Positions 523 to 29,062 of a stretch of DNA of 51,438 nt are shown here, piece by piece (position 1 is the first letter of the stretch; each line of letters opens with the position of its first letter). The DNA is from a phage. The notes under the pieces were generated by a model. It searched no databases, had not been told where the DNA came from, and saw nothing but the letters and a program-made list of their open reading frames with translations. The DNA lies in the sequence record PZ754631.1. One strand, written 5' to 3'. The position numbers were made by a program, and so were the translations under genes.

Positions 523-2090
523 TGCTGATTTGGGAAGACTTAACAGCGGCGCAAAAACGCGCCATTAAGGAAATGAGCGAATATTCATTCGAAAAGATGA
601 TCCGCATTTGGTTTCAACTTCTCCAGGGGCAAAGGTTCTTAGGAAACTGGCATTTCAGTTACCTATGCAGCGAAGTTGAAAAAATAATCAAAGGCGAGTC
701 ACAGAACGTAATTTTCAACATAACGCCAGGCAGTGGTAAAACAGAGATATTCTCGATCCACATGTCACCTTATGCGTCATTGAAAAGTAAGAAGGTGAGA
801 AATCTTAATTTGTCGTTTAGTGATGGCCTTGTACAGCAGAATAGCAACCGCATCAAAGAGATTATTGGTTCTCCAGAGTGGCAGGAGCTATGGCCTGGAA
901 AGCTGGCAAAGGCGAGCGCAAAGGATTTGATTGTAACCGATGGCGGCAAGGTTAAATTACAAGTTAACTCGCGCTCTATCGGAGGTCAGGTTACTGGTCT
1001 GCGTGGCGGCTACATGGACGATGGTTTTACTGGTATGTTGGTTCTTGATGATCCAGACAAGCCGGATGACATGCTTTCTAAGGTGAAGCGCGAAGCCGGA
1101 CACATGCGCCTAAAGAACACGGTGCGATCGCGTCGAATGAAGGACACCACGCCAATCGTAATGGTCCAGCAACGGCTACACGTCAATGATTCAACATGGT
1201 TCATGACAAACGGCGGCATGGGCGGCATCCAGTTTAAGGTGGTTAGTATTCCTGCGCTCGTTACTAAGGAATATCGCGAAACGCTTCCTGACTGGTTAAA
1301 GCCTGAGTTTGATCGCGATGTTTTGTCCAGTAAGCCGGTGATGATTGATGGTGTTGCTCATTATTCGTTCTGGCCTGCTAAGGAAAGCGCGGAGGAATTA
1401 CTTGCACTTCGAAATGCTGATCCGTACACATTCGCTAGTCAGTATCAGCAACAGCCTGTTGCGCTTGGCGGTAACGTGTTTAAAACAGAGTGGTTTCAGT
1501 ATTACGGCAGCAGCGAGAAATGCACGCTACCAAAACCGGATCGCTTTGAATATACATTTATCACTGTTGATACCGCACAGAAAACAGGGGAGCTTAACGA
1601 CTACTCAGTGATCTGTTATTGGGGGATGTATAAAGATCGTGTCTACTTCATTGATGGCGTTCGCGGAAAATGGGAAGCACCGGACCTTGAGACGAATTTT
1701 GTTGCATTCGTTAATCAGTGCTGGAAGCGCAATAAAGAATGCGGAACGTTGCGAAGGATTCATGTTGAAGATAAGTCATCTGGCACTGGCTTGATTCAGA
1801 GTGCAGCGAAAAAAATCATGATCAAGATCAATCCCGTTCAGCGCGATAAAGACAAGGTTACTCGCGCAATGGACGCAGCGCCAGTAATGCGCGCCGGACG
1901 CGTAGCACTTCCAGAATCACATCCTATGCTGGCTGAGATACTAGCTGAAGTTGCGGCGTTTACATTCGATGATAGCCATCCTCATGATGATATTGTTGAT
2001 AACATCATTGATGCGGTTAACATTGAAATGAACATGGCAGATGATCCGGTTGGAAGAATGAAAAAATTGGCAGGTTTGCGGAACAAATAG
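522..2090 (+). CDS. terL: terminase large subunit
   Basis: 522 aa; Walker A-like PGSGKT and Walker B-like VLDDPD ATPase motifs, C-terminal nuclease-like region; position before portal. Confidence 0.85.
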   Translation: MLIWEDLTAAQKRAIKEMSEYSFEKMIRIWFQLLQGQRFLGNWHFSYLCSEVEKIIKGESQNVIFNITPGSGKTEIFSIHMSPYASLKSKKVRNLNLSFSDGLVQQNSNRIKEIIGSPEWQELWPGKLAKASAKDLIVTDGGKVKLQVNSRSIGGQVTGLRGGYMDDGFTGMLVLDDPDKPDDMLSKVKREAGHMRLKNTVRSRRMKDTTPIVMVQQRLHVNDSTWFMTNGGMGGIQFKVVSIPALVTKEYRETLPDWLKPEFDRDVLSSKPVMIDGVAHYSFWPAKESAEELLALRNADPYTFASQYQQQPVALGGNVFKTEWFQYYGSSEKCTLPKPDRFEYTFITVDTAQKTGELNDYSVICYWGMYKDRVYFIDGVRGKWEAPDLETNFVAFVNQCWKRNKECGTLRRIHVEDKSSGTGLIQSAAKKIMIKINPVQRDKDKVTRAMDAAPVMRAGRVALPESHPMLAEILAEVAAFTFDDSHPHDDIVDNIIDAVNIEMNMADDPVGRMKKLAGLRNK

Positions 2091-2120
2091 CACGAATCGA
2101 CAAACCAATATATAATCAAA

Positions 2121-2146
2121 GGCTGGAAAATCCAGCCTTTTTTATT
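2121..2146 (+). terminator. intrinsic terminator-like hairpin after terL
   Basis: GGCTGG-loop-CCAGCC followed by T-run. Confidence 0.5.
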
Positions 2147-2158
2147 GGAGGAAAGATA

Positions 2159-3439
2159 ATGAGTAAATCACGAATCGTTAAGGCTGACGGCTACAACGAG
2201 ATCTTTAAAGGCGAAAATTGCAAATCGCGAGTAGAGCAACCATTCTACATGCAATCAATGCCATACAAGACACTTGCTGACTTTTACGAAAAAGACGGCC
2301 TAGCAAAAAGGGTTATTGACGTAGTACCAGAGGAAATGGTTTCCCCTGGCTTCACGGTTGACGGCGTGGCAGACGAGGCAGCATTCCGTTCTTTGTGGGA
2401 TGAGAAGCGATTGAATGCAAAAATTATTGATGCGCTTTGCTGGTCGCGTTTGTTTGGCGGATCTGCAATCATTGCTCTTGTTCAGGATGGGCGGGCGCTC
2501 AAATCACCTGTAAAGCCTGGGGCCATGCTGGAAGATGTGCGCGTTTATGATCGTTATCAGATTCGCGTTGAAGCGCGCGAAACTAATCCACGCAAGGTTC
2601 GCTATGGCGAGCCAGTGCTTTACACTGTAACGCCGGGCGGAGACTTGCCGGAATACCAGGTACACTACACGCGCGTTTGCATTATCGACGGTGAGCGGAT
2701 ACCTAACGCAAAGCGACGCAGCAATGATGGCTGGGGTGAGTCAGTTCTTAACAAGCGACTTGTTGAGGCTATTGTTGATTATAACTATTGTGAAACGTTG
2801 GCAACGCAATTATTGCGGCGGAAGCAACAGGCTGTATGGAAGGCTAAAGGACTCGCTGACTTGTGCGATGATGAGGAAGGTGTTAGCGCGGCACGCCTGA
2901 GACTTGCGCAGGTTGACGACGAGGGCGGTGTTGGCAAAGCAATTGGTATTGATGCTGAGGATGAGGAATATGATGTTCTTAATTCTGACATCAGCGGCGT
3001 TGATTCTTTCTTGGAAAAGAAAATGGATCGCATCGTTTCCCTTTCAGGTATTCATGAAATCATCCTGAAAAATAAAAACGTTGGCGGCGTTAGCGCAAGC
3101 CAAAACACGGCGCTTGAAACATTCTATAAGCTGATTGAACGAAAACGAGTTGAGGATTACAAGCCTATTCTTGAATTTCTATTGCCGTTCATCATTAGTG
3201 AGCAGGAGTGGAGCATTGAGTTTTCACCTTTGAGCGTACCTAGCGATAAAGATCAGGCTGAAATTCTGAATAAGAATATAGACTCAATCAGCAAGGCTAT
3301 TGATGGTCAGTTCCTTGATGTTGAAGAAGCGCGAGACACGTTGCGAGCAATCGCCCCAAGCGTTAAACTAAAGGAAACTAATAAAATCAAGCTGCCGGAG
3401 CCGACTGAGCCGGAGCCAGGCACACAGGGGAATGAGTAA
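2159..3439 (+). CDS. portal protein
   Basis: 426 aa between terminase and head-morphogenesis gene; strong RBS GGAGG. Confidence 0.75.
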   Translation: MSKSRIVKADGYNEIFKGENCKSRVEQPFYMQSMPYKTLADFYEKDGLAKRVIDVVPEEMVSPGFTVDGVADEAAFRSLWDEKRLNAKIIDALCWSRLFGGSAIIALVQDGRALKSPVKPGAMLEDVRVYDRYQIRVEARETNPRKVRYGEPVLYTVTPGGDLPEYQVHYTRVCIIDGERIPNAKRRSNDGWGESVLNKRLVEAIVDYNYCETLATQLLRRKQQAVWKAKGLADLCDDEEGVSAARLRLAQVDDEGGVGKAIGIDAEDEEYDVLNSDISGVDSFLEKKMDRIVSLSGIHEIILKNKNVGGVSASQNTALETFYKLIERKRVEDYKPILEFLLPFIISEQEWSIEFSPLSVPSDKDQAEILNKNIDSISKAIDGQFLDVEEARDTLRAIAPSVKLKETNKIKLPEPTEPEPGTQGNE

Positions 3440-4203
3440 TGAAAGTGAAAGGCGTTGTTAAACAATGGCGCTTTCCTGAAGCAAGCGAGCGGCAATTTAG
3501 CCGCTCAATTCAGGAGGCAATTAGAGATCTGGTGGTCATCATGCGCAAGCGAACAAAAGCGATGAAGTTTGACGCAACAGATAATGAGATCAACAGCGCA
3601 GAAGATGAAATTAACAACCTGGCAACTGACCTTATAGCTGGCATTGTTTCAACTCTTCCCGCAATCGCGTTGACAATTTATAAATTCAATGCGAAGCAGT
3701 TTATCAATGTTGCCAAGTCAACTGGCGGAAAGGATAATACGGCGGTAATTGTTTTGATCGCGGTTGGCGCTAACGCTAACGAGGACTGGTATCAGACGCT
3801 ATACGGTCAATGGCACGGGCTTACAGAATCATCGCTAAGGAAGTTATTCACAAACATTGTTTCTGATTGGTCAACAAACATTCGAAATGCAAACTTTCGC
3901 GGAAGCAATGATAAACAGGTTAACGATCTTGCAGAAAAGAGATTTGCTGTTTATAGCTCTTGGGGTAAAACGAGATCAGAAAACATTATCGGCGCGTGGA
4001 ATAGTCGCCTGATGCGCCAGCGCCTTTATGATGCTAAGGTGACTCATTATTTCTGGCATGGAATGTTAGATGATAGAGAGCGATTGCAGCATGTGTTATG
4101 GGAAGGTAAAAGAATAGCGCTTGATGCAATTCATGATTTCCCTGGTGAGCCGTGGGGTTGCCGTTGCTGGGCGATTCCAGATTGGAATAATAAAGGAGAG
4201 TAA
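3439..4203 (+). CDS. head morphogenesis protein (Mu F / SPP1 gp7-like)
   Basis: 254 aa following portal with overlapping start; C-terminal conserved PGEPWGCRC region typical of the family. Confidence 0.7.
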   Translation: MKVKGVVKQWRFPEASERQFSRSIQEAIRDLVVIMRKRTKAMKFDATDNEINSAEDEINNLATDLIAGIVSTLPAIALTIYKFNAKQFINVAKSTGGKDNTAVIVLIAVGANANEDWYQTLYGQWHGLTESSLRKLFTNIVSDWSTNIRNANFRGSNDKQVNDLAEKRFAVYSSWGKTRSENIIGAWNSRLMRQRLYDAKVTHYFWHGMLDDRERLQHVLWEGKRIALDAIHDFPGEPWGCRCWAIPDWNNKGE

Positions 4204-21368: not shown

Positions 21369-22430
21369 ATGAATAAGTTTATGGCGTACACCAGCGAAGA
21401 AATGAGTAACGAGCTTTATCACGATCCAGAAGCGTGGACGGCTGATTATGTTAGCGGCTCAAGCCTGGCAGAGATTTACAGCACATGCCCGGCAGCGTGG
21501 AAGTTCAAGCCGCGTGACGACAAGAGCAAGGCGCTAGTTTTTGGTACGCAGTCGCATACCAACTTTGAAAGCAGTGAGCTTTTCGAAAAAACCTATCGCC
21601 GTGCGCCAGCGCCAGAAGACTTTAAGGATCTGATAACCAGCCAAACGGCGCTTGCTGCAAAGCTAAAATCATTTGGCCTGAAAGGTACAACAGGAAAGAC
21701 TTACCCTGAACTTATAAAAATGTTGGTTGACTGCGGAGAAGACCTTAACGTTATGTGGTTAATCGACATGATCGCAGAAAGCCAGGCCATGGCCGATGGG
21801 GTTCAGTTAATCGAAGCTAAAGATTACGATGCGTGCGTGGCAATGCGCCAGGTTCTGGAATCAATACCGGAACATAACGCATGTATGAATAGCAAGACGG
21901 CACAACGTGAATTATCGTTGTTCGGTGAAATCAACGGCGTAAAAGTCAAAGTGCGATGCGATCACGTTGACGTAACAAAGAACGTCACCGCAACGCTGAT
22001 TGATGGTTACGATGAAAAAGGTCAGCCAATTTGCCGCGATATTATTTATCCAGAGGCCATTGTGATCACAGACTACAAAACCACAATGAGCGCGAATCCG
22101 GCTGAGTTTATGCGCCTGGCTTACAATCACGGCTATTATTTGAAAATGGCGTTGCAATGTGATTTATTCAGAAAAGCGTATCCAGAAGAAAAGCGACCTA
22201 TAGTTGTGCGACTGTTAGCGCAAGAGAAGAAAGAGCCTTATTTGCCGTTGGCTTTCCGCATGAACAGCGAGCAATTGAAGATCGGGCGCATTCAGTACAT
22301 GAGCGTAATTAACCAGTTTGCCATGTGCCAGCAACATAACGTTTGGCCTTCGTATTCAAACGGCGAGCCGGAGGTTTGCCTTGATACTCCTGATTGGGTG
22401 CGACGCCAGTTTAAGCAATATCTTATTTAA
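21369..22430 (+). CDS. RecB/Cas4-family (PD-(D/E)XK) exonuclease
   Basis: 353 aa; motifs CDHVD and ITDYKTT typical of RecB-like nuclease core; upstream of Erf and SSB. Confidence 0.65.
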   Translation: MNKFMAYTSEEMSNELYHDPEAWTADYVSGSSLAEIYSTCPAAWKFKPRDDKSKALVFGTQSHTNFESSELFEKTYRRAPAPEDFKDLITSQTALAAKLKSFGLKGTTGKTYPELIKMLVDCGEDLNVMWLIDMIAESQAMADGVQLIEAKDYDACVAMRQVLESIPEHNACMNSKTAQRELSLFGEINGVKVKVRCDHVDVTKNVTATLIDGYDEKGQPICRDIIYPEAIVITDYKTTMSANPAEFMRLAYNHGYYLKMALQCDLFRKAYPEEKRPIVVRLLAQEKKEPYLPLAFRMNSEQLKIGRIQYMSVINQFAMCQQHNVWPSYSNGEPEVCLDTPDWVRRQFKQYLI

Positions 22431-22511
22431 ACAGCACAAATAGCTAAACAAATGAAAAATGCGGTGTTATAATTCACCGCATAAGTTAACAACAAGCGTA
22501 AGGAAATAAAC

Positions 22512-22790
22512 ATGGAAAACAAACAAGTGTCAGAGGTAGCAATTCATATCAATAATTTTGCAACTGGCATAGCTATGTTGCTTCGTGACTTTGTTGCGCC
22601 GCTTGATCCAACGGCAGGCGCAGAAGAAATGGAGTACATCAGAAAAGTAATGGATGCAGTCGATAACGTCGTACTTGTTGCAACAATGAGCGAAGACAAC
22701 GAGGAAGCAATCAAGGCAGTAAAAGAAAGTTCTGATCGCATGATGGAAAATCTAATTAAATTACACACCAAAGAAGAAACAAAACATTAA
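22512..22790 (+). CDS. hypothetical protein
   Basis: 92 aa acidic ORF with RBS and own -10 box. Confidence 0.5.
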   Translation: MENKQVSEVAIHINNFATGIAMLLRDFVAPLDPTAGAEEMEYIRKVMDAVDNVVLVATMSEDNEEAIKAVKESSDRMMENLIKLHTKEETKH

Positions 22791-22835
22791 CAGTAACAAG
22801 GCGGCGAAAGCCGCCATTAATTACGGGAATTAATC

Positions 22836-23492
22836 ATGAAACTATCAGAGCAATTCGACAAGGTTTTACCAGCACTGCACAAGGCGCGCAGTTTGTTTGT
22901 AAAGGTTAAGAAGGATAAACAAAATACACACTTAAAAAACCGTTACGCTACACTTGATGCCGTTCTTGATGCAATCACTCCAGCATTGAACGATAACGAG
23001 CTAATGTTGATGCAGGATATGATTGAAAGCGAACAACCTAACCGCATCAAAGTTGAAACAACAGTTCTTCATGTTTCCGGTCAGTGGGTGAAATTCTATG
23101 CTGAATTACCAATCGTTAAAAACGATCCTCAAGGCGTCGGATCTGCATTCACATACGCGCGTCGTTATGCAGCCGCAGCAGCATTTGGCTTAAGCCAGGC
23201 AGACGATGACGCACAGATTGCCGTTAAATCTGCAAACGACTGGAAGCGTGACATTGAGAAATGCGAAAGCGTAAACGAATTGCAAGAAGTGCTTAAATCA
23301 GCATGGAAGGCAAGCGATCCGGCAAGCAAGCAGGTAATTAAAGAGCATTACGAGAAGCGCAAGGCAGAGCTTGAGATCGGCAAAGCACGAGGATTTAATC
23401 CAGCGCAACCAAAGCAAAATCTCGCCTCGCCAGAAGTTGACACAAAAAACGACGAGCAAGTAAAATCACAAAGTATCACTGATTTTGAATAA
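22836..23492 (+). CDS. erf: ERF-family single-strand annealing protein
   Basis: 218 aa; [13 protein letters not shown] region resembling ERF family; between exonuclease and SSB. Confidence 0.7.
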
Positions 23493-23536
23493 TTGACATG
23501 GGGCGCTTGCGCCCCTTTCTTACAGGAGAATAAATA

Positions 23537-23989
23537 ATGCATATTATTACTGGTGAGATCCGAAAAGAGCCGCGAGTAAAGCAAATGCCTAACGGCAGCA
23601 CACTTTATGTAGTTGAACTTTCAGAGCGATACAAAGATAAAGATGGAAACTGGCAATATACAAACTACAGTTTCTTTTTTAATGCGAAAACTGACGGACT
23701 TAATGGTTGGTATGCTGAGGCGTTCCAGGTTGGCAAGGTTATTTCTGTTTCTTGTGACACGCTGCGCATTGAAACGCGCGAATATAACGGAAAGATGTAT
23801 TCAAGTTTAATGCCAGGCGGATTTGCAAATCTTATCTTCAGTCAGCGCGGGGAAAGCCAGCAACAATATCAGCAGCGAACGCAAGGAGGATGGGGGCAGC
23901 CACAACAACAGAATCAACCGCAACAACCGCAACAGCCAAGACAAAGCAATCAGCCTCCTATGGACTTTGACGACGACATTCCTTTCTGA
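23537..23989 (+). CDS. ssb: single-stranded DNA-binding protein
   Basis: 150 aa; OB-fold-like N-terminus, Gln/Pro-rich linker and acidic C-terminal tail DFDDDIPF. Confidence 0.85.
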   Translation: MHIITGEIRKEPRVKQMPNGSTLYVVELSERYKDKDGNWQYTNYSFFFNAKTDGLNGWYAEAFQVGKVISVSCDTLRIETREYNGKMYSSLMPGGFANLIFSQRGESQQQYQQRTQGGWGQPQQQNQPQQPQQPRQSNQPPMDFDDDIPF

Positions 23990-25123: not shown

Positions 25124-25828
25124 TTAGCAACCGCAGCAGCCAGTCGGCGGAGTCGCCGGAGTAGGCAACTTGAAGTTTACCAATTGCTCTACATGGTTGA
25201 TTTTGCAATTCAGTGCGGCGGTCTGGTTTGCCTGAGAAAGAGCAAAACGCGCTTCCTGCAACTGAGCTTTCATATCGCAAATCAAAACAGCCTGAGAATC
25301 AGCAAACTGTTGACGAATCAGATCTCGCGTTGCGTTACCTTGTCGCTCAATGTTCAGGTTAGTCTCGCAGCAACATCTCTCCGCTGCAATCTGCGCTTGA
25401 TAGGAACGCTCAAGAGCATTAACATCAGCAGCATTAATCGCAGCAACCGTCTGGTTAGTACCGCTAACAATCGCGGTATTCAGTCCGGCGAAACCTTGCA
25501 CCGATGCAAGCAGGTTTTGCGTATTCTGGCTGGTAATGCCGTTAAAGGTTGATGCGGCGGAGCGCTCAACGGCAAGGTTTGTGGAATTTTGACCTTGCAG
25601 AGTTTGCAGCCCCAGGTTGTTTACACCTGTCTGGATGTTATTAATACCATCAAGAACAGCGTTAGCACCGACGGCAACAGCAGCGCCATCACCACCATAG
25701 CCACCACGACCATTAAAGCCGTTACCAAACCATGACCCAATCAGGCCGCCAACAGCACCGCCAAGACCAGCCGCGCCAGCTTCGCCACCAAAACCACCAC
25801 CAGTAGGGAGTAAAGTCATATCTGACAT
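25124..25828 (-). CDS. Gly-rich protein with C-terminal Cys clusters
   Basis: start at MSDM with RBS AGAGGA; N-terminal poly-Gly region, central Gln/Asn/Thr-rich coiled region, CCC and CCGC clusters. Confidence 0.55.
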   Translation of the reverse strand: MSDMTLLPTGGGFGGEAGAAGLGGAVGGLIGSWFGNGFNGRGGYGGDGAAVAVGANAVLDGINNIQTGVNNLGLQTLQGQNSTNLAVERSAASTFNGITSQNTQNLLASVQGFAGLNTAIVSGTNQTVAAINAADVNALERSYQAQIAAERCCCETNLNIERQGNATRDLIRQQFADSQAVLICDMKAQLQEARFALSQANQTAALNCKINHVEQLVNFKLPTPATPPTGCCGC

Positions 25829-26006
25829 AGTAAATTCCTCTTTGACGTTAAAAAAATTAAAAAAAGTTTGCAACATTTATGTTACGACAAAGAGTATGCG
25901 CCAAATTACCAGGAATAGATATAAAACATTTGTAAGCGATATGTCAGCAAATGGCATAAAGACGAAAAAAGGCGCAGCCGTAGCCGCGCCTTGTGATTAT
26001 TTTTTG

Positions 26007-27977
26007 TTAACTCTCAAGAGTTGTGGGCTTGTTGATCAATGCAGAAACAGCCGCCTTCAGTTCTTCAACCTCCTTTTCAAGTTTTGATATTCTTTCTTTG
26101 TTTTCAACATCACGCGCACGTAGAGCCTTTATTGCAGCCAAGCCATCAAGAAGCATCGGAGTTTGGTCAAGATGCCAAAAACCCCCAACATCCTTAACAT
26201 ATTCTCGGTCGATCTGCTTAATTTGCTGTGATATAACCCCTCTTCTTGTTGCGCCTCTGATTTCTTTAGTATGATGCTCATCTTTAAACTTGAATAGCTT
26301 AAACTCCATTCTATCTATGTTTGATAGCGCGCATTCAACGTCAAGATTTCCTAGTACATCATTCATTCTTTCATCAGACACCGCCGACGTCGTTACTTGC
26401 GCCCATGCAGACCACGAAGAAGCATTTGTCTGTATCCTTGTATAAATGCGGTTAGATGTGTCGTAGAATCTCTGTTGGTTCCACCTGCCATTAACACCTT
26501 GTGATGCAGTTTTTCCTTGAGATAATCCTTGCGTTGTTTGTGTAAATAGAGAACCATACGCATTACCAGAATAAGGTGCGTTTGAGTAAGCCCCACCAAT
26601 ATTAAGCCATCCTTGAGGAACAACATTAAAATCCTTTACATCACCAATACCAAGTATATTTGAATTTCCGTTAGGAGAAAGACCACCATCAAACGATACA
26701 TACATCCTCAGTGTTGAGTCTGGCCTTGGTATAGTAACTATGTTTCTTCCAGTGCTGTTATTCCCATTCGCAAAGAACACATTTAAAGCAGTTGACCTGT
26801 CATTCTCAAAGGATATTCTTCTTCCTATTGTGCTGTCATCAACCTGACTAGTTTTTAATGTTATAGCAGGCCAGGTTGTATGTACTGTCATACCAGCAAA
26901 AGTAGGTGAGTGTTGACTATTAAGCCCGATATTGTTACGAATCCCATTTGCATCTTTCGCACCTGTTCCACCTTTATCTATTGGTAAAGCTATACCACTA
27001 TTTGATGTAGAATCCCATGCACCCCAATCGCCATTATTTTTTACGAAAATTCGCTTTGTTCCATCAGCACTTAAAACGAAAGTTTCACCAGATTCTTCAG
27101 TTGTCTGCTTCAATCTGTCTACGCTTAGGTTTTTTCTTGCCTCACCTTTATCTGCAACATCGCTAAGGTTGTTGTTTTTGTTAAGCATATTTGCCGGATT
27201 TATGCTATCCGCATATTCTTTCGCCTTATCTTCAGAAGCCTTAGCGGCATTTTTTGAAGCCAGAGCATCAGAAGCAGATCTGGCAGCTTCGCTTTTGCTT
27301 GTACTCGCCGCGATTTCTGAATTTTTGGCATTTGTCTCGGACGTCTTTGCTGCATTCTGAGAAGCGAGCGCAGCATCCTGAGAATTTTTAGCGGCAATCT
27401 TGCTTTCATTGGCTGCATTCTCTGAATTTTTGGCATTTGTCTCCGACGTCTTTGCTGCGATCTTGCTCGCGTTGGCTGCGTTTTCTGACTCTTTGGCATT
27501 AGTCTCTGACGCTTCTGCTTCGTTCTTTGAATTAAGCGCATCAGCAGCAGATCTTGCCGCGGCATCCTTACTTTGATTCGCAGACGCTGCGTTTTCTTCC
27601 ACCTGTTTAGCCAAATCCTGATAATGCTTCCAATCAAACGTCTTAAAAAATTCCAGCGCTTCCCCGATCTCTGATTCTTTACTCTGATAGTAGCGCAATG
27701 TTTCAGCTACATCTTGAGCAAGCCCATCAACAGTTATTGAGTCATGAAGCAAGATCGCGTAATTTGAGCGAGTAACTACCGCGCCACCAGTTGTAATTGC
27801 ACGAATGCTTGTATCGTTAATAACTTCAGTTATCACGGCAATCTGCAACGGCTGAGTTAAAAATACAATAGTTGCACCAGGGCGAATGAGCGTTAGTTGC
27901 TCTCGCCATTTCGTGTCGTATCCAGTGATATAACCTTGAGCGTCCATTGACGCTTGTCCGGTTCTGTAAATTGCCAT
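26007..27977 (-). CDS. tail fibre protein with C-terminal intramolecular-chaperone-like domain
   Basis: 656 aa (start at MAIYRTG with RBS AGGAGA); Ala/Ser/Asn/Lys/Glu-rich tandem repeats; C-terminal SDERMN segment resembling S74 self-cleaving chaperone domains. Confidence 0.7.
   Translation of the reverse strand: MAIYRTGQASMDAQGYITGYDTKWREQLTLIRPGATIVFLTQPLQIAVITEVINDTSIRAITTGGAVVTRSNYAILLHDSITVDGLAQDVAETLRYYQSKESEIGEALEFFKTFDWKHYQDLAKQVEENAASANQSKDAAARSAADALNSKNEAEASETNAKESENAANASKIAAKTSETNAKNSENAANESKIAAKNSQDAALASQNAAKTSETNAKNSEIAASTSKSEAARSASDALASKNAAKASEDKAKEYADSINPANMLNKNNNLSDVADKGEARKNLSVDRLKQTTEESGETFVLSADGTKRIFVKNNGDWGAWDSTSNSGIALPIDKGGTGAKDANGIRNNIGLNSQHSPTFAGMTVHTTWPAITLKTSQVDDSTIGRRISFENDRSTALNVFFANGNNSTGRNIVTIPRPDSTLRMYVSFDGGLSPNGNSNILGIGDVKDFNVVPQGWLNIGGAYSNAPYSGNAYGSLFTQTTQGLSQGKTASQGVNGRWNQQRFYDTSNRIYTRIQTNASSWSAWAQVTTSAVSDERMNDVLGNLDVECALSNIDRMEFKLFKFKDEHHTKEIRGATRRGVISQQIKQIDREYVKDVGGFWHLDQTPMLLDGLAAIKALRARDVENKERISKLEKEVEELKAAVSALINKPTTLES
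27250..27560 (-). repeat. in-frame tandem repeats inside tail fibre gene (~105 bp period with sub-repeats)
   Basis: near-identical 38-mers TCTGAATTTTTGGCATTTGTCTC(G/C)GACGTCTTTGCTGC at ~27316 and ~27421; protein-level NAK(N/E)SENAAN(A/E)SKIAAK repeats. Confidence 0.6.
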
Positions 27978-28035
27978 GCGTTTTCTCCTATGTTGCATGT
28001 TAATGTCAATGCAGATAATAGCATTTGCTAAGGCC

Positions 28036-28058
28036 AAAAAAAACCCCGCAATGCGGGG
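28036..28058 (-). terminator. intrinsic terminator (minus strand) between primase and tail fibre
   Basis: CCCCGC-AAT-GCGGGG with run of T on minus strand. Confidence 0.6.
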
Positions 28059-28075
28059 TAAATTAGCAGTGACAT

Positions 28076-29008
28076 TTAGAGAATTGATTCAGGTTTGAAA
28101 ACCCTCCTCTCTATCCCTTGCCTGTAATTATCATTAATCGGCATCATAATTTCAAGTCCTCTTTCCTCGGCAGCAATGATCGCGTCACGATCTGTGCTCT
28201 TACAGACAACTCGCATTCTTCTGTTGCCTTTGTACCTGTAAGCTACAATCTCAATGTTAGTTGCATCAAAACAGGCCCAAACCTCCTGACCAGTTGCAAG
28301 ATGAATATGTTGCGCATCAATCCAGTCAACGCAAAGATAGATCGTCTTATCTGTACTTCCTGTTCTCACAACCGATCCGCGCGTGTAGTCCTTTGCGAGA
28401 AAAGACTGTTTACCTTCTTCATCAATGAAAAGCACATTGCACATTTCATCATCAACATCATCGGAATGTACCAGGTAACATGGGAGCGCGTGAATGTATC
28501 GACCATCTTTAACGCCGCAATCATAATGACCATCTTCAGGCGGGTATATTCCTTCATATGTGCTTAACGGCGTGCGATCAAATTTTAATGTTTTTGACAT
28601 AACGCGCTCGCAGCATTCATGGCTTGCCTGCTTCCCAAACGAATAACCAGAATCACGAGACACTCGCTTATTTGCCTTGATTCTATAGTCCTGCGGAACT
28701 TTTCCAAGAAAGCGGCCCAAAATATTGATCACTTCGCTGTAAGGTTCTCCGGTTAGCTTCATGATCCAACCAATTCCAGTATCATTACCGCACACGTTGC
28801 AGATCGCACCGCCATCGCCTTTTTTATCGCCAAGTTTATCTGTCCACCTGAATCGATCCTTTCCGCCGCAGTGGGGGCAAGATTGATGCTTGCCGTTAAA
28901 AACTTCATTTGGAAGACCGCAAATACTTTGTAGCGCCTCACGCCACAATCCTTGCATATATGGGAGAACATCTTCCTTTTGGTAAACCATAAAGTTTTCG
29001 TTGTTCAT
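28076..29008 (-). CDS. DNA primase-like protein (zinc-ribbon)
   Basis: N-terminal CPHCGG...CNVCG zinc ribbon; between HTH protein and tail fibre on leftward unit; start choice uncertain. Confidence 0.6.
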   Translation of the reverse strand: MNNENFMVYQKEDVLPYMQGLWREALQSICGLPNEVFNGKHQSCPHCGGKDRFRWTDKLGDKKGDGGAICNVCGNDTGIGWIMKLTGEPYSEVINILGRFLGKVPQDYRIKANKRVSRDSGYSFGKQASHECCERVMSKTLKFDRTPLSTYEGIYPPEDGHYDCGVKDGRYIHALPCYLVHSDDVDDEMCNVLFIDEEGKQSFLAKDYTRGSVVRTGSTDKTIYLCVDWIDAQHIHLATGQEVWACFDATNIEIVAYRYKGNRRMRVVCKSTDRDAIIAAEERGLEIMMPINDNYRQGIERRVFKPESIL

Positions 29009-29062
29009 ATGCACCTCAAACAAAAAGCCTGACAGATGATAACATCATGCCAGGCATTGTTT

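Follow-up and report, generated by a model that had tools for sequence, protein, structure and literature searches.

Asparagine in place of the catalytic lysine in the S74 chaperone domain of a phage lateral tail fibre

Introduction

The phage sequence record PZ754631.1 (51,438 nucleotides (nt), called the window here over its full length) carries on its minus strand an open reading frame (ORF) of 656 amino acids (aa) plus stop, 26007..27977, which is the gene for a lateral (side) tail fibre. The fibre ends in a Peptidase_S74 intramolecular chaperone, a domain that normally cuts itself off. Its cleavage motif reads SDERMN (aa 534-539), with asparagine where a catalytic lysine is expected. Can such a chaperone still leave the fibre, and if it cannot, what would this mean for the fibre and for the phage that bears it?

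In the S74 mechanism a lysine deprotonates a serine, which attacks the preceding peptide bond after the trimer has folded (PMC3828593; PMC4690869). The nucleophile of endoNF is Ser911 and its general base is Lys916 (as cited in PMC3828593; PMC8326128), and in the T5 fibre pb1 Lys1269 activates Ser1264 (PMC4690869). MyRF K592, which has been equated with endoNF K916, is essential, the K592A mutant being 'not cleaved at all' (PMC8326128), and processing is fully blocked in Dictyostelium MrfA K772A (PMC3828593). MyRF can do without its second nearby lysine, K671, and further basic residues are absent from the surroundings of its reaction centre. The text and supplement of a deep-mutational-scan preprint on the K1F tailspike contain no data on K916. 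The uncleaved T5 pb1 mutant S1264A folds and crystallises as a trimer, yet gives no inhibition of T5oad adsorption; because of this failure, its authors concluded that the chaperone has to be removed before the binding site is unmasked (PMC4690869).

The catalytic dyad of the S74 domain

Codon 539 of the fibre gene is AAT (Table 1). The two closest relatives, Warwickvirus EC167 and the Salmonella phage 3sent1, read SDERMK with AAG at this position, and the codons around the site are identical in DNA; the change is a single G>T transversion in the third codon position. Lysine occupies the dyad column in 19/19 aligned homologues and in 67/67 phage or viral loci. A further survey of 154 proteins, with representatives from a library of 1.8 billion proteins among them, gave lysine in 156/156 domain instances. 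The viral contig scan, which found one locus with a single-protein query, found 62 with an alignment-based query. Conservation of the lysine is far above chance, and no other case of asparagine was seen at the column among ~220 relatives. An earlier note on this DNA had pointed to asparagine at the expected lysine position, and these counts bear it out. The same note had given the motif as SDxRxK, of which the lysine at +5 stands; arginine at +3 is common and not universal, and the surveyed consensus is SDxxxK.

The other half of the dyad is in place. Ser534 and Asp535 both fall in columns that are invariant in the 19-homologue alignment, and across the 156 instances the nucleophile column holds Ser 151 times, Cys three times and Ala and Asp once each, always followed by Asp (156/156). 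When aligned to the MyRF chain 7dc3 ('ADLRAK'), Ser534 falls on the mutated serine position of that chain and the Asn539 column on its lysine, which is MyRF K592. The fibre therefore has Asn539 where endoNF has K916, T5 pb1 has K1269 and MyRF has K592. All other invariant columns of the alignment are kept, and the lysine is the only nearly invariant S74 residue absent here. Within the chaperone the ratio of nonsynonymous to synonymous substitution rates (dN/dS) is 0.105-0.115 against both close relatives. There are nine differences from EC167 in the first 113 residues, of which four, including N539, precede the variable C-terminal helix. A dN/dS of about 0.1 argues against general decay of the domain and for a recent and isolated asparagine change. 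Judged by its sequence, the domain is an S74 domain by descent, and as a peptidase it has lost half of its catalytic dyad.

Departures from the usual motif were also seen elsewhere in the family. A few S74 relatives have a cysteine nucleophile (CDSRLK, CDIRYK, CDATLK), with the lysine kept in all, and one 1767-aa protein has three internal S74-like stretches (SDKRIK, ADERIK, DDTRIK), each of which keeps its lysine.

Membership of the S74 family, proposed in the earlier note from a resemblance to self-cleaving chaperones, is confirmed by sequence profiles. The Pfam family PF13884 (cut-off 22 bits) matches aa 534-594 with a score of 21.5 bits when the whole protein is searched and 22.9 bits for the isolated domain, which is marginal against the cut-off. 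When Asn539 was changed to lysine in silico, the latter score rose from 22.9 to 29.3 bits, i.e. the lysine is worth 6.4 bits. A precomputed PF13884 match exists for 33 of the 34 homologues, and the homologue profile matches the MyRF ICA chain 7dc3 (E 2.6e-7) and the L-shaped tail-fibre chain 8hqz_d (E 3.9e-6). The domain lies at the extreme C-terminus (aa 534-656 of 656), where its terminal segment is heptad-like: EKEVEELKAAVSAL. A model of the C-terminal 197 aa built with AlphaFold2 (AF2) places a C-terminal helix at residues 146-190 of the query, with block-mean predicted local distance difference test (pLDDT) scores of 66-91. A Foldseek search of the PDB with this model, a monomer of poor quality, gave no match at E <= 0.001. 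The structure route was dropped because the native S74 fold is an intertwined trimer, which a monomer prediction misses. In endoNF (R897) and T5 (R1250) a folding-sensor arginine from the neighbouring chain forms the oxyanion hole. By position, R514 ('..YTRIQTN..') is a candidate counterpart, about 20 residues before the motif in the aligned homologues; at the motif the model has pLDDT <50.

A second asparagine allele was sought by exact matching. A 23-mer with AAY at the dyad codon had no match in viral, metagenome and genome collections, a negative that is uninformative because the control 23-mer for the lysine allele (AAR) likewise failed to retrieve this module. The control gave 0 viral and six metagenome matches. 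One of these falls in another gene with an S74 domain, which tblastn did not match to the fibre, and the other five fall in an unrelated protein. In these five the 23-nt string for SDERMKDV recurs identically in an unrelated non-fibre gene on five gut or metagenome contigs (...FPLKTSDERMKDVTKYGGYTSATIAYYFIV...), apparently by coincidence.

Comparison with characterised S74 systems

Three characterised systems can be set beside this fibre. Like endoNF, it has a C-terminal trimerisation chaperone of the PF13884 family, made up of a cleavage motif of the S-D-x-x-x-K type, an alpha/beta region and, at the end, a helix. The fibre differs in having Asn539 for Lys916, and in that a fibre tip rather than an endosialidase beta-helix stalk lies upstream. 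PDB sequence searches returned no endoNF chain at E <= 1, and the relationship is therefore drawn through the family profile only.

T5 pb1 too is the lateral fibre of a siphophage; it recognises a primary glycan receptor, is accessory for infection, and has an S74 chaperone that is removed at maturation (Ser1264/Lys1269). Its uncleaved mutant is the best available model for the asparagine variant, with the difference that the block to cleavage was engineered at the serine in pb1 and would be natural and at the lysine in the window fibre. The latter is also half as long as pb1 and belongs to a T1-like virion. Neither the protein nor its profile matched T5 pb1, including its 'bullet' tip, in PDB sequence searches at E <= 1, and the receptor-binding domain is therefore of another fold family. 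The link of the fibre to T5-like phages consists of the chaperone and the cassette in common with 3sent1 only.

The ICA domains of MYRF and MrfA provide the best match by sequence to the chaperone profile among solved structures (7dc3), and their SDxxxK column corresponds to S587/K592. These proteins are eukaryotic, and cleavage frees a membrane-tethered transcription factor, so that they serve as mechanistic proxies only.

Predicted consequences of the substitution

We consider that there is somewhat better than an even chance that this side fibre is folded but uncleaved, with its tip capped and its receptor binding impaired, and that the defect is tolerated in an accessory structure; this would be a private loss-of-function mutation, with no new mechanism. 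In such a scheme the N-terminal domain would dock a mosaic trimeric fibre to the tail, the shaft of 19 heptads would set its length, the distal cassette would contact a surface glycan, and the C-terminal S74 chaperone would nucleate folding of the trimer. In the normal state Ser534, activated by lysine at +5, would cut the Val533-Ser534 bond, freeing the 14-kDa chaperone and exposing the fibre tip. The G>T transversion would have turned this general base into asparagine. With Asn539 the chaperone may still fold the trimer, while self-cleavage would be abolished or very slow. Virions would then carry the uncleaved 71-kDa fibre, capped at its tip and impaired in binding to the primary receptor (predicted masses are 71.1 kDa for the precursor, 57.0 kDa for the mature fibre and 14.1 kDa for the chaperone). 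The suggestion of the earlier note that autoproteolysis may be altered follows correctly from what is known of K-to-A mutants (PMC8326128; PMC3828593).

T5-like phages have lateral fibres that are accessory when the host is a rough laboratory strain, and T1-like phages have been proposed to be alike in this (PMC8594841). The phage would thus stay viable, the lateral fibre being accessory for adsorption to hosts without an O-antigen barrier, and a mutation that abolishes cleavage would be tolerated because the fibre is accessory. The allele is probably a natural cleavage-dead S74 variant, and most probably nothing more than a private mutation by which an accessory gene has lost a function, which leaves the current view of the family unchanged.

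If the asparagine is real, nature has supplied in this allele what was otherwise made by engineering, a cleavage-dead S74 mutant. It would also permit a test, at the level of the virion, of whether the function of T1-like lateral fibres needs chaperone release, with a one-base revertant as control. For host-range prediction and phage engineering it calls for caution, as a fibre annotated as intact may be functionally capped.

Alternative explanations

Several points weigh against a folded, uncleaved and capped fibre. The published S74 mutants have lysine replaced by alanine, and none has asparagine in its place. That a chaperone masks the binding site is known only from T5 pb1, and between the receptor-binding domains of pb1 and the window fibre no relationship is detectable. 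Relaxed selection is an assumption. The AF2 monomer (C-terminal 197 aa, 20-sequence alignment) is poor, with a mean pLDDT of 63.1, a predicted template modelling score (pTM) of 0.36 and pLDDT <50 around the motif. The asparagine itself could come from an error in the consensus or from an allele carried by a minority of the phages, and this is the main rival. The gene would then truly encode lysine (AAG), the T being a miscalled base or a minority or late-passage variant, and the fibre would be an ordinary self-cleaving one. Only one base differs, in the third position of its codon, the change is private among all surveyed relatives, and the exact-pattern scans for the asparagine allele were empty, although these count for little since the lysine-allele control failed. 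An artefact is nevertheless unlikely, if far from negligible: the codon lies outside any homopolymer, and the assembly looks clean because the window has 0 ambiguous bases and its long core ORFs (terminase, portal, tape measure and a 1192-aa tail-tip protein) are all intact.

The asparagine might also be real and cleavage persist, perhaps more slowly or in a pH-dependent manner, with Arg537 (+3), a basic residue of the neighbouring subunit or water as general base. Ser534, Asp535, Arg537 and the other conserved chaperone residues are intact, the nucleophile position varies naturally (five of 156 instances lack serine), and some active-site mutants of MyRF are impaired in part only (PMC8326128). 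We regard this as improbable. The invariance of the lysine in every examined relative argues against any working substitute, K-to-A changes fully abolish cutting in two independent systems, and MyRF, which does not need K671, has no further basic residue near the centre. Nor is arginine at +3 a compensating change, because it is equally present in relatives that have the lysine. Cleavage of the backbone by the asparagine itself, through succinimide chemistry, was considered and rejected, as five residues separate Asn539 from the scissile bond and N539-D540 is not known as a context for Asn cleavage. Adaptive retention has a slimmer chance again. Loss of cleavage would here have been selected, either through abolished binding by the lateral fibre (with faster diffusion and larger plaques at purification) or through use of the chaperone as a new distal knob. 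Laboratory lambda PaPa, which has a side-tail-fibre frameshift associated with larger plaques, offers an analogy, but there is no evidence on the passage history of the present phage, and a single private substitution cannot separate selection from drift. No region varies more in this phage group than the lateral-fibre locus (PMC8594841), and some relatives have much shorter fibres, e.g. grams with 455 aa; the fibre in the record of another, JLBYU09, is fragmentary, but with 22 N bases the cause may lie in the assembly and not in the phage. Least probable of all would be an S74 chaperone that is functional without its dyad lysine, cleaving with another group as general base or by a slow route that depends on conditions, or acting as a permanent distal cap that alters binding. 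If true, this would represent a 'pseudo-peptidase' state of an intramolecular chaperone in a viable phage.

Domain organisation and mosaic origin of the fibre

By descent the gene clearly belongs, from its sequence relationships, to a well-known kind, the S74-bearing lateral tail fibres of Drexlerviridae. Its identification as a tail fibre in the earlier note agrees with the PHROG and PDB matches, the N-terminal anchor and the position of the locus. The protein matches PHROG tail-fibre families with E down to 1e-90, and its N-terminus aligns to residues 1-189 of the Klebsiella siphophage depolymerases 7lzj/7vyv (E 2.5e-54 to 4.6e-54). A search against NCBIfam gave no match. The coordinates of the features are collected in Table 1.

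Table 1. Positions of the fibre gene, its domains and associated elements in the window.
Feature	Position	Strand	Basis or remark
Fibre gene	26007..27977	-	ATG at 27977, stop 26007-26009; ORF, PHROG and PDB matches
N-terminal virion-attachment domain, ~aa 1-124	27606..27977	-	Conserved across relatives
Ala/Ser-rich heptad shaft, aa 125-257, 19 heptads	27207..27605	-	Heptad register, 21-nt periodicity
38-nt direct repeat, upstream copy	27421..27458	-	105-nt spacing, one mismatch
38-nt direct repeat, downstream copy	27316..27353	-	105-nt spacing
Distal receptor-binding region, ~aa 336-533	26379..26972	-	Part of a cassette common to 3sent1 and EC167
Peptidase_S74 intramolecular chaperone, aa 534-656, 14.1 kDa	26010..26378	-	Pfam and profile matches
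Ser534 codon, predicted nucleophile	26376..26378	-	Predicted scissile bond Val533-Ser534
Asn539 codon AAT, general-base Lys position	26361..26363	-	AAG (Lys) in EC167 and 3sent1
Shine-Dalgarno AGGAG	27985..27989	-	7 nt 5' of ATG 27977; read from sequence
Terminator-like hairpin, interval between primase and fibre genes	28043..28059	-	Sequence reading
Intrinsic-terminator-like hairpin and T-tract, just 3' of the fibre stop codon	25969..25992	-	

The fibre is a mosaic. Its first 124 residues are nearly identical to those of Fulano1, grams, B1.3 and Henu8, forming a conserved attachment domain, and nt 1-578 of the gene, which cover this domain, have 90-94% nucleotide identity to Fulano1, grams and B1.3. 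The shaft that follows is predicted to be a trimeric coiled coil, and aa 258-335 form a linker with the motif GGTGAKDA, also present in the fibre 7z47. From nt 1006 to 1857 (tip and most of the chaperone) the gene has 92.4% nucleotide identity to 3sent1 and 85% to EC167, and the amino-acid identity of the distal region is 88% and 82%, respectively. The counterpart in 3sent1 is the L-shaped-fibre gene of a T5-like Salmonella phage, and some homologues are labelled by NCBI as 'pyocin knob domain-containing S74 family peptidase'. The last 166 nt return to the Hanrivervirus backbone, with 91.6% identity to Fulano1, and the tip cassette has therefore been swapped by recombination, with one joint inside the terminal helix of the chaperone.

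The 92.4% stretch runs from 26121 to 26972 of the window and from 3129 to 3980 of the locus stretch of 3sent1, a Salmonella Gallinarum phage (Tequintavirus). The exchange thus crosses two families, Drexlerviridae and Demerecviridae, with its 3' joint in the terminal helix.

An N-terminal anchor is common to Drexlerviridae fibres, both those of the Klebsiella phages (7lzj, 7vyv) and those of the Hanrivervirus phages Fulano1, grams and B1.3. In the latter three, as here, the anchor is followed by an Ala/Ser heptad coiled coil and the gene has the same genomic position. The distal half differs, being a depolymerase beta-helix in the Klebsiella phages, while Fulano1, grams and B1.3 have tips with S74 domains that are not the one found here. 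Unlike the window fibre, those of the compared fibres that possess an S74 domain all retain the lysine.

Shaft repeats and fibre length

The earlier note had described tandem repeats of about 105 bp in the shaft. In-frame repeats are present, but not as clean tandem copies of 105 bp; they recur primarily every 21/63 nt, with 105 nt as a spacing of higher order. TRF reports a period of 63 nt with 2.1 copies (27397-27527, score 169), and a repeat search gives the 63-nt unit in three copies at spacings of 63 and 105 nt. The longest near-exact repeat in the shaft is 38 nt with one mismatch, at a lag of 105. Self-identity of the shaft DNA is 0.41-0.58 at all multiples of 21 nt (0.57 at 105, 0.58 at 168), compared with 0.21-0.25 at control lags, and the basic unit is therefore a heptad of 7 aa. 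The 19 heptads, of the type xAxxSxx, are uninterrupted.

Length variation, which the earlier note had expected from such repeats, is seen among relatives. Measured between the fixed anchors QVEENA and KEYADSI, the shaft has 128 aa in the window, compared with 163 aa in B1.3 (+35), 100 aa in Henu8 (-28), 93 aa in Fulano1 (-35), 65 aa in EC167 (-63) and 37 aa in grams (-91). The differences to all five relatives are multiples of 7 aa, i.e. whole heptads. The segment missing from Fulano1 is exactly aa 174-208, which corresponds to the 105 bp between the two 38-nt repeats, and an exact indel flanked by such a repeat indicates that the variation in length is real. By its sequence context the indel is a signature of unequal recombination or slippage. 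Shaft length would shift by unequal recombination between the 63- and 105-nt repeats, separately from the asparagine change. The tuning of shaft length through repeat recombination is documented by lengths quantised in heptads, one case being the exact 105-bp indel that separates close relatives.

The fibre locus of JLBYU09, the closest whole-genome relative, is fragmentary (1501-2347 of its locus stretch), with two short overlapping ORFs annotated, and its N bases lie in and just past the heptad-repeat region. Either the assembly collapsed across the repeats or the fibre is degenerate.

Gene and genome setting

From its sequence, the window looks like a complete T1-like phage genome. It opens with a terminase-small-subunit-like ATG, and its first 25 kb are 96-97% identical to the Hanrivervirus phages JLBYU09, Fulano1 and grams (Drexlerviridae, Tempevirinae). 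A Drexlerviridae lateral fibre is expected in a locus between primase/helicase and recombination genes, and the setting of the window gene agrees with this, as it does in relatives; the locus is hypervariable in this family, with the 5' end alone conserved (BASEL study, PMC8594841). On its upstream side the fibre gene adjoins a DNA primase gene (28076-29023). On the other side, ORFs at 21369-23989 are placed like the exonuclease, recombinase and single-stranded-DNA-binding protein genes of relatives, an assignment made by position and not by family search. A promoter scan of the interval from the upstream terminator to the fibre start codon gave no sigma-70-like site under its criteria.

An extended ORF of 676 aa from an upstream TTG is an unlikely start, as it begins right behind the upstream hairpin (28059-28043), within the T-tail of that hairpin. 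Exact-protein look-ups returned no matching record for either the 656-aa or the 676-aa product. The coding sequence of the Fulano1 fibre (1501-3420 of its locus stretch) is annotated from the corresponding TTG (LALANAIICIDINMQHGRKR-MAIY...). The window counterpart of this extension is without a ribosome-binding site, in addition to beginning behind the hairpin, and the Fulano1 start has probably, on this reading of the sequence, been annotated 20 codons too far upstream.

The gene directly 3' of the fibre (25124-25831 on the minus strand, or to 25876 with an upstream ATG) encodes a protein of 235-250 aa with a Gly-rich N-terminus (GGGFGGEAGAAGLGG...), an internal CCC and a C-terminal CCGC. It had no match in NCBIfam, and matches PHROG 9288 (unknown function) end to end with E 4e-123. 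Genes of similar size occupy the same spot in grams, B1.3 and JLBYU09.

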